Sequence record: PV292302.1
Reading direction: 5' to 3' (one strand)
DNA: 64,000 nucleotides
Origin: Escherichia phage Jgk1
In this document: piece by piece, positions 38,701 through 39,614 of the stretch
Layout of the letters: every line of letters starts with the position of its first letter
Position numbering within the stretch: the first letter of the stretch is position 1
Notes under the pieces: model-generated
The model's database searches: none
What the model was told of the DNA's origin: nothing
The model's input: the letters and a program-made list of their open reading frames with translations, nothing else
Program-made: the position numbers and the translations under genes

Positions 38701-39117
38701 ATGGAACTCGAACAACAGATTAAAGAAGCTGGTGCTGATAAAGCTCCACGTATTACCCCTAACCACATCAAGAGTAAAGTACTTGGTACTTACTTCTTTA
38801 CTGGCCTGGATGGTGCAGCATCAGTGTTGCCTGATTTGGCAACCATTAAGAACCAGGAAGTACAGTCACTGTCCTTGCTGACATTCTGTGTACTGGTTCT
38901 GGAGAACGGTTTCACTGTTACTGGCGAGTCTGCCTGTGCATCCCCAGAAAACTTCAACGAAGAAATTGGACGTAAGATTGCCTACGAAAATGCAATCGAT
39001 AAAGTCTGGTTACTTGAAGGCTACCTCCTTAAGCAAAACCTGCATGAGAAAACTCAGAGCCGGGAAATGCTCAAGGGTTTCTTGGATGAAGGTGACTGTG
39101 CAGGGTGCAAACTCTAA
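38701..39117 (+). CDS. Hypothetical protein (138 aa)
   Basis: Internal ATG of track ORF 38605 immediately after upstream stop. Confidence 0.45.
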   Translation: MELEQQIKEAGADKAPRITPNHIKSKVLGTYFFTGLDGAASVLPDLATIKNQEVQSLSLLTFCVLVLENGFTVTGESACASPENFNEEIGRKIAYENAIDKVWLLEGYLLKQNLHEKTQSREMLKGFLDEGDCAGCKL

Positions 39118-39614
39118 TGGAAACTAAAATTCATTTCACCAACTACATTGGAACCAAGTGTGTAAATGGTTTCCCAATGAACAAGGTTGACTACTGCATA
39201 CTTCGTGGTTGGGATGTACCTGCTACCGAAGACCCATTAGAAGAAGGTTACTTAGTAGAGTACCCGGATTCTAAACCTAACCATGAGCAATTCCGTGGTT
39301 ACATTAGCTGGTCACCCAAGGCTGCATTCGAAGAAGCATACCGTGACGTAGTAAGCGGTTGTACTTTTGGTCATGCAGTGGAGCTTCTTAAGAAAGGATT
39401 CAAAGTAGCCCGTAAAGGCTGGAACGGTAAGGGTATGTATATCTCTTACGTTGCTGCCGAAGAATGGGCAAGTAGTGAACTGGAACGTCCCTGGTCAAAA
39501 GACCTCAAGCCCATCCCTTGGATTGGTATGAAGACTGTAGACGATACATATGTTCCGTGGTTAGCTTCTCAGTCAGATATTCTGGCAGTAGATTGGGTAT
39601 TAGCAGAGAGCTAG
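39105..39614 (+). CDS. Two-domain protein with C-terminal DUF2829-like (Tad2-like) domain
   Basis: C-terminal AVELLKKGFKVARKGWNGKGMYI...VPWLASQSDILAVDWV matches my recollection of the DUF2829 signature. Confidence 0.45.
   Translation: MQTLMETKIHFTNYIGTKCVNGFPMNKVDYCILRGWDVPATEDPLEEGYLVEYPDSKPNHEQFRGYISWSPKAAFEEAYRDVVSGCTFGHAVELLKKGFKVARKGWNGKGMYISYVAAEEWASSELERPWSKDLKPIPWIGMKTVDDTYVPWLASQSDILAVDWVLAES

Follow-up and report, generated by a model that had tools for sequence, protein, structure and literature searches.

The stretch of DNA analysed here (the window) comprises 64,000 nucleotides of Escherichia phage Jgk1 (PV292302.1), an N4-like podophage (Schitoviridae, Enquatrovirinae). It is related to the Gamaleyavirus coliphages, because the DNA of its virion RNA polymerase (vRNAP) gene is ~84% identical to that of G17, PhAPEC5 and PhAPEC7 over the 6 kb compared. 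In N4-like phages, the interval from the primase to the vRNAP gene is an anti-signalling hotspot with homologues of Tad2, Tad3, Acb4 and Sequestin (bioRxiv 10.64898/2026.06.04.730250). In the window, this interval contains four tightly packed genes between two terminator-like hairpins, encoding a protein of 134 aa, the sponge Acb4, a two-domain protein in which an uncharacterised N-terminal domain (N-domain) precedes a Tad2-like domain, and a protein of 75 aa (Table 1). Both the Acb4 and the Tad2 gene are located within the hotspot, together with an orthologue of Bes1. The initial annotation had described an accessory block flanked by the tRNA island and the convergent terminator, and the gene arrangement agrees with this description, with five tRNAs on one side and, on the other, a hairpin immediately before the vRNAP gene. 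A search of NCBIfam gave no match for any protein of the block.

Table 1. Features of the primase-to-vRNAP interval of the window; positions count from the first letter of the window.
Feature	Position	Strand	Basis or match
DNA primase (PriCT_1 domain), left boundary of the hotspot	30401..32557	+	
Bes1 orthologue (Ab09 gp60, N4 gp46-like, RuvC-like)	34205..34765	+	42% identity, E=1e-46 to Ab09 gp60
Five-tRNA island, upstream of the block	36349-36844		
Terminator-like hairpin followed by a T-run, just upstream of the block	38259..38288	+	
First ORF of the block, 134 aa, TTG start	38295..38699	+	no family match
Acb4 (PF13876) gene, N4 gp48 orthologue	38701..39117	+	Pfam, N4 identity, PDB 9e4w
Gene of the two-domain protein, N4 gp49 orthologue (most likely extent)	39117..39614	+	ORF, N4 alignment, phrog_872
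N-terminal domain, residues 1-78	39117..39350	+	profile search, AF2, homology to RyR Tad gp68
Tad2-like (DUF2829, PF11195) domain, residues 83-162	39363..39602	+	Pfam, PDB matches, motif alignment
Last ORF of the block, 75 aa	39616..39843	+	partial match only, phrog_29107
Bidirectional terminator-like hairpin separating the block from the convergent vRNAP gene	39847..39870	.	
Virion RNA polymerase (vRNAP), 3447 aa, right boundary of the hotspot	39876..50219	-	

Gene arrangement and orthology to phage N4

The Acb4 gene is recognized by PF13876 (E=5.1e-30), by 56% identity of its product to gp48 of phage N4 and by a match to the Acb4 structure PDB 9e4w (E=1.1e-4). Its start is likely ATG 38701, directly after the stop codon of the preceding ORF. 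N4 gp48 has been named Acb4 (PMC12657230); this validated protein binds 3'3'-c-di-AMP (111 nM) and is both necessary and sufficient to trigger Panoptes and PanDA.

The downstream gene had been annotated as an ORF at 39105-39614. The ORF on the + strand is real and does end at 39614, and GTG 39105 is its first in-frame start, but translation most likely begins at ATG 39117. This codon is preferred because the alignment with N4 gp49 begins here (METKIHF in the window, MEIKVHF in N4), and because its A is also the last base of the TAA stop of the Acb4 gene (cTAATGg), a one-base overlap. The most likely product is therefore a protein of 165 aa, which matches phrog_872 (E=4.5e-64) and is 73% identical over its full length to N4 gp49 (160 aa; YP_950527, “DUF2829 domain-containing protein” in RefSeq).

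N4 gp49 is the orthologue of the window protein: it has the same two-domain architecture, follows gp48/Acb4, precedes the convergent vRNAP gene and begins at the same overlapping start. The window phage differs from N4 by its tRNA island and by extra small ORFs. An exact-sequence look-up found no identical copy of the window protein in public assemblies, and a literature search on N4 gp49 or N4 Tad2, orthologues included, gave no experimental paper. The DUF2829 annotation of the N4 orthologue and the type of locus are already known; beyond these, interest lies in the uncharacterised N-domain, which is systematically associated with sponge domains.

The Tad2-like C-terminal domain

The C-terminal ~85 residues had been proposed as a candidate DUF2829/Tad2 domain, with an HMM search against Pfam named as a check, and this search returned a highly significant match. 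Residues 83-162 align with positions 2-72 of the 73 in PF11195 (Tad2-like/DUF2829) at E=2.4e-23 and 82.9 bits, where the curated gathering cut-off is 25 bits. The domain also matches phrog_1048 (E=1.9e-23). A phmmer search of the PDB matched residues ~81-164 to seven chain sequences of five different Tad2-family proteins with known structures (E=4e-17 to 7e-11), among them MoTad2 (9EIB, 8V3E; E=4e-17), which is a His-ADPR sponge, AcrIIA7/HgmTad2 (9KZR and 8KBI; E=4e-14 and 1.5e-13), SptTad2 (8WJD; E=9e-12) and SPO1 Tad2 (8SME, 8WJE; E~6e-11). At the level of sequence, membership of the Tad2 family is secure. A single-sequence AF2 prediction of the full protein shows a helix at residues 84-94 and four strands in the expected order, although at pLDDT 32 this model is unreliable.

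The residues that contact the ligand are conserved. In SPO1 Tad2, gcADPR is contacted by W25, N26, W73, S76, T78 and D79, and in HgmTad2 by W21, N22, G23, W87, L88, S90, T92 and D93. The window protein has KGWNGKG and PWLASQSD (PWLASQSDILAVDW) at these positions, keeping every contact except for a T to S exchange at the adenine-contacting position; MoTad2 has the same change. The ligand-contact motifs GWNG and W-x-x-S-x-S-D are retained. In the solved Tad2 sponges (8SME, 9EIB, 8KBI, 8WJD), which belong to the same Pfam family, the motifs GWNG and W..S..D..A.DW line the gcADPR/His-ADPR pocket, and both are common to the window protein. The solved sponges are single-domain proteins of 88-104 aa, whereas the window protein adds a conserved N-domain of 78 aa. 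The extension of AcrIIA7-long (158 aa) is unrelated to this domain.

Of the homologues in the assays of Hadary et al., those most similar to the window protein are Tad2_82 (51% identity), Tad2_83 (46%), Tad2_71 (45%) and MoTad2 (43%). Type I Thoeris is inhibited by Tad2_82 and Tad2_83, and types I, II and IV by Tad2_71 (Hadary et al.), while MoTad2 inhibits type II Thoeris and Pycsar. A specifically anti-Thoeris role of the window protein is not secured, because Tad2 homologues vary widely in specificity and some of those assayed are inactive. The active ones are essentially all single-domain proteins; the only long homologue assayed, Tad2_73 (158 aa, with an unrelated N-terminal extension), is inactive in the listed assays.

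The two domains of the window protein relate differently to those of N4 gp49, as the N-domain is about 90-92% identical and the Tad2 domain 58-59%. Closer counterparts of the Tad2 domain of the window occur in an IMG/VR contig (93% identity) and in Klebsiella KP8-like phages (79-86%). Differences between N4-like orthologues concentrate in the insertion between β2 and β3, in a pattern of allele-like mosaicism: N4 gp49 carries a different insertion allele, and that of the window is closer to those of the Klebsiella KP8-like phages and the IMG/VR contig. These values do not extend to a general difference in rate. Representatives selected by profile share 55% identity in the N-domain and 33% in the Tad2 domain, in a set that is biased by the choice of its members on N-domain score; for unbiased N4-like orthologues, the values are 76 and 73%, and the idea that the N-domain changes at a much lower rate than the Tad2 domain was rejected.

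In other Tad2 proteins the β2-β3 insertion forms a second ligand pocket, and its variability among N4-like orthologues, where it is the most variable part of the protein, would fit a Tad2 domain whose main target is a signal outside Thoeris (a cyclic dinucleotide of CBASS, or the cUMP/cCMP of Pycsar), bound through this pocket, Thoeris not being the relevant target in Enterobacteria. Tad2 homologues do inhibit CBASS, Pycsar and three Thoeris types; in HgmTad2 and SptTad2 the insertion mediates binding of cGG and cGAMP, and MoTad2 binds cUMP at the A-C interface. We nevertheless consider this target improbable. The insertion of the window protein has ~26 residues, a length that resembles those of MoTad2 and of SPO1 Tad2 (24), which binds no cyclic dinucleotide, and that falls short of the 35-41 residues in homologues that do. 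The residues of the gcADPR pocket are intact, and the phage already has Acb4 for cyclic dinucleotides.

Automatic annotation of some related phages suggests yet another activity, that of an anti-CRISPR protein resembling AcrIIA7. AcrIIA7 is indeed a DUF2829 protein with a clear match to the window domain (E=4e-14), and the records of Mimir124 and Klebsiella phages name the orthologues “anti-CRISPR protein,” a label that derives from AcrIIA7. E. coli is not known to have type II-A CRISPR-Cas9. Li et al. could not reproduce inhibition of Cas9 by AcrIIA7/HgmTad2 or by other Tad2 homologues and showed AcrIIA7/HgmTad2 to be a gcADPR/cGG sponge, and Yirmiya et al. conclude likewise. An anti-CRISPR function is hardly credible.

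The N-terminal domain

The fusion of the Tad2-like domain to a domain of ~80 residues, also proposed in the initial annotation, is borne out by PHROG families and a family of homologues particular to this domain, and by a confident, independent AF2 fold. The PHROG families matched by the N-domain differ from those of the C-terminal domain, and in them the same module precedes an Acb4 domain. The sequence follows the motif GTK..A.PM..Y..RGW..P..E...GYLVEY.D(S.PNH...)GYISWSPK..FE.AY. and keeps the GYLVEY...Y.SWSP core that is invariant in the family. Residues 1-78 have no Pfam match at E≤0.1 and match no PDB chain by sequence. AF2 predicts a small α/β domain (pLDDT 94.4), for which a fold search found no significant match among solved PDB folds, including nucleotide-binding proteins. 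In this model residues 1-16 are extended and confident, with no strand assigned.

The family is large. A word-indexed search with the N-domain returned six proteins and missed N4 gp49, so that an exhaustive profile search was required. A profile built from six N-domains and searched exhaustively against 1.84 billion representatives retrieved 3008 of them at E≤1e-3 and 1356 at E≤1e-10. In INPHARED, the domain is present in 124 phage records. Many aromatic and polar positions are near-invariant across phages of Proteobacteria, Clostridium and Parabacteroides. Read directly from its sequence, the N-domain of the window protein is net acidic.

Residues 2-70 of gp68 encoded by Pectobacterium phage vB_PatP_CB1 match the N-domain profile (hmmsearch, E=1.4e-12), which places the N-domains of this protein, RyR Tad, and of the window protein in the same family. 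RyR Tad is likewise encoded in this hotspot, in another N4-like phage, and shares the layout of the window protein, an N-domain followed by a sponge for ADPR-type signals. The sponge of RyR Tad, however, is all-helical and resembles Repeat12 of the ryanodine receptor, while that of the window protein is Tad2. Its N-domain has diverged within the family and is missing the RGW and PNH elements. In the RyR Tad crystal the N-domain is a domain-swapped dimer, in which strand β1 is inserted into the other protomer, and the N-terminal fragment (residues 1-86) alone was without apparent effect on type I Thoeris (bioRxiv 10.64898/2026.06.04.730250). The strand-free, extended residues 1-16 of the predicted window monomer are compatible with such a strand exchange.

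Three other identities of the N-domain were rejected. It is not Sequestin, as the four proteins of the block have no PF21825 match at E≤0.1 and the N-domain is α/β where Sequestin is an all-helical domain of ~60-80 aa. Nor is it Lockin, a mostly-β hexamer reported to be absent from the complete phage genomes of INPHARED, in contrast to the 124 INPHARED records with the N-domain; Lockin was instead found C-terminal to the N-domain, as a distinct fusion partner. Finally, descent as a diverged duplicate of the Tad2 fold is not supported, since a local hhalign comparison of the family alignments gave a probability of 0.2%. This last idea had arisen from the common “R.GW” and “W.P” motifs and from SPO1 Tad2 as the top, non-significant Foldseek match.

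Fusion partners of the N-terminal domain

In the best 150 of the 3008 representatives, Pfam identified partners from four families, Sequestin (PF21825) in 49, Tad2 in 48, Acb4 in 18 and the Acb2/Tad1 hairpin in 3, and no partner family beyond these. Local HMMs applied to the top representatives gave N-domain-Tad2 (51), N-domain-Sequestin (39), Acb4-N-domain-Sequestin (9) and N-domain-Acb4 (7), among other architectures. Partner segments that could not be placed, in a set of 154 representatives, included Tad1-like and Lockin-like sequences and ~35 singletons. The N-domain also occurs as a stand-alone ORF of 80 aa, and its BFVD matches include proteins of 65-92 aa. Taken together, these profile matches join the N-domain to six or more sponge families that are unrelated to one another (Tad2, Sequestin, Acb4, Tad1, Lockin and RyR Tad). 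No paper that states a general link between this domain and sponge families was found in the literature. One further candidate, a copy in the middle of Ab09 gp59 (“Acb4-Sequestin”), was discarded, since the domain is absent from gp59. The initial annotation did not include the orthology to N4 gp49, the upstream Acb4 sponge or the N-domain as a large sponge-associated family.

Fusions of one sponge to another are known from Acb4-Tad2 (Pasteurella phage Pm86), Tad2-Sequestin and Acb4-Sequestin (Ab09 gp59), which resemble the window protein in combining several anti-signalling modules in one polypeptide. In these fusions both modules are proven sponges, in contrast to the N-domain, which has no known ligand. 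The window phage carries as adjacent, overlapping genes the Acb4 and Tad2 that are fused in Pm86. Across 80 IMG/VR loci, an Acb4 gene is often found before the N-domain-Tad2 gene, and a Sequestin gene sometimes after it.

This pattern of fusions lends itself to a reading in which the window protein has two activities, the N-domain being an autonomous anti-defence module (a further sponge for an un-assayed signal, or a domain that binds an immune protein of the host), so that two pathways would be neutralized at once, as in the Acb4-Tad2 and Acb4-Sequestin fusions. Its partners are almost exclusively known sponges in the best 150 of the 3008 representatives, and Tad1-like, Lockin-like and RyR Tad partners are found in addition. 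The same “guilt by fusion” logic yielded the discovery of Sequestin, and it is stronger for the N-domain than for any Pfam family. The existence of stand-alone versions of 80 aa and the many aromatic or polar positions that are near-invariant across distant phages point the same way. We hold this reading tentatively, as a minority view. The N-terminal fragment of RyR Tad did not apparently counter type I Thoeris in the single published test, the N-domain is net acidic where sponge pockets are described as positively charged, no fold match connects it to any nucleotide-binding protein, and neither a ligand nor a partner is known for it.

Proposed mechanism

We favour, with a probability of about three in four, a protein whose Tad2-family C-terminal domain sequesters ADPR-type signals derived from TIR proteins and whose N-domain pairs protomers by strand exchange. 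By homology, the C-terminal domain would form a homotetramer, in which pockets between protomers bind and sequester the ADP-ribose-derived signals made by TIR proteins. The candidate ligands are 3'cADPR/2'cADPR; His-ADPR or N7-cADPR may also be bound, and the second pocket may take up a cyclic (di)nucleotide. With its signal sequestered, a Thoeris-type effector would stay off.

By homology with RyR Tad, the N-domain would be a domain-swapped dimer, and the most conservative role for it would be to pair protomers and so stabilize or bridge the sponge oligomer. Helix α1 of Tad2 is located at the interlock of two V-shaped dimers (Yirmiya et al.). In the window protein, the linker between the N-domain and this helix has just 3-4 residues. 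From the position of the helix and the shortness of the linker, we infer that paired N-domains could clamp the interface of the tetramer, at which the ligand pockets form.

The overlap of stop and start codons suggests that translation of the Tad2 gene is coupled to that of the Acb4 gene, an arrangement by which a sponge for cyclic dinucleotides and a sponge for ADPR-type signals would be made together, presumably at the same time.

A purely structural role of the N-domain, as in the preferred reading, sits badly with its stand-alone ORFs of 80 aa. A more specific alternative is that these ~75 residues constitute a seventh-to-ninth, hitherto unrecognized anti-signalling module of phages, an autonomous domain-swapped dimer that binds an un-assayed signal or a conserved component of host immunity. 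We consider this proposal doubtful. If it were true, the N-domain would be a “flag” for a fused partner that is likely a sponge, the ~35 unplaced partner segments in the 154 representatives would be candidates for new sponge families, and N4 gp49 and its orthologue in the window would be dual inhibitors.

Implications

N4 is among the classical model phages, and therapy cocktails make use of N4-like coliphages. A compact block that is bounded by terminators and couples Acb4 with Tad2 may help explain how N4-like phages meet CBASS- and Thoeris-type immunity, and also their exposure to the guard systems Panoptes and PanDA, which sense sponges. Because the N-domain occurs in fusion with sponges from six or more unrelated families, this domain without a Pfam name offers a practical marker for new sponges, and it is a defined target for a functional screen. 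The domain is already present, without comment, in published tables of homologues, with more than 85 entries in that of Sequestin and two in that of Lockin.

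Mosaic Tad2 Domains and Partners of the N-Domain

Among the gp49 orthologues of N4-like phages the Tad2 domain is, as judged by sequence comparison, mosaic relative to the N-domain to which it is fused. When the Tad2 domain of the window (39363-39602) was compared with the loci carrying gp49-type genes (L004-L012), the adjoining N-domain proved to be of the N4 type (92%), and the Tad2 allele shared 59% identity with its N4 counterpart, 79-86% with the alleles carried by Klebsiella KP8-like phages and 93% with the one on an IMG/VR contig. The site of this allelic variation is the β2-β3 insertion.

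Local HMMs left the C-terminal partners of P0042, P0047, P0093, P0126, P0075 and about 35 other N-domain family representatives unassigned. These segments include Tad1-like and Lockin-like ones, as well as many singletons that have no Pfam match and may represent undescribed sponge domains.

Neighboring Genes

The two small genes that share the terminator-bounded block are candidate counter-defence genes by virtue of their position; Pfam and NCBIfam give no family for either product. In several N4-like relatives (the IMG/VR contigs L006, L007, and L010-L012), a stand-alone Sequestin gene (67-78 aa) lies 3′ of the N-dom-Tad2 gene, generating the consecutive order Acb4, Tad2, Sequestin, whereas in the window the place of Sequestin is taken by a 75-aa ORF unrelated to it. 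The window also encodes an orthologue of Bes1, for which broad evasion of CBASS and Thoeris has been reported.

Coordinates of features near the Acb4 and N-dom-Tad2 genes and the tRNA island
Position	Feature	Match or location
34205-34765	Bes1 orthologue (Ab09 gp60, RuvC-like, N4 gp46-like)	42% identity, E=1e-46
35903-36160	ORF, 85 aa	DUF7740, E=1e-15
36890-37015 (+)	Sub-threshold Rfam match to permuted tmRNA (RF04321)	34.7 bits (gathering score 47), E=9.6e-5
38295-38699	Small gene, 134 aa	Terminator-bounded block with Acb4 and N-dom-Tad2
39616-39843	Small gene, 75 aa	Terminator-bounded block with Acb4 and N-dom-Tad2

Surroundings of the tRNA Island

The 1.4-kb segment 36845-38258 contains no convincing ORF. 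The sub-threshold Rfam match to a permuted tmRNA adjoins the 3′ end of the five-tRNA island, and ARAGORN found no tmRNA. The DUF7740 ORF is located just 5′ of the island.
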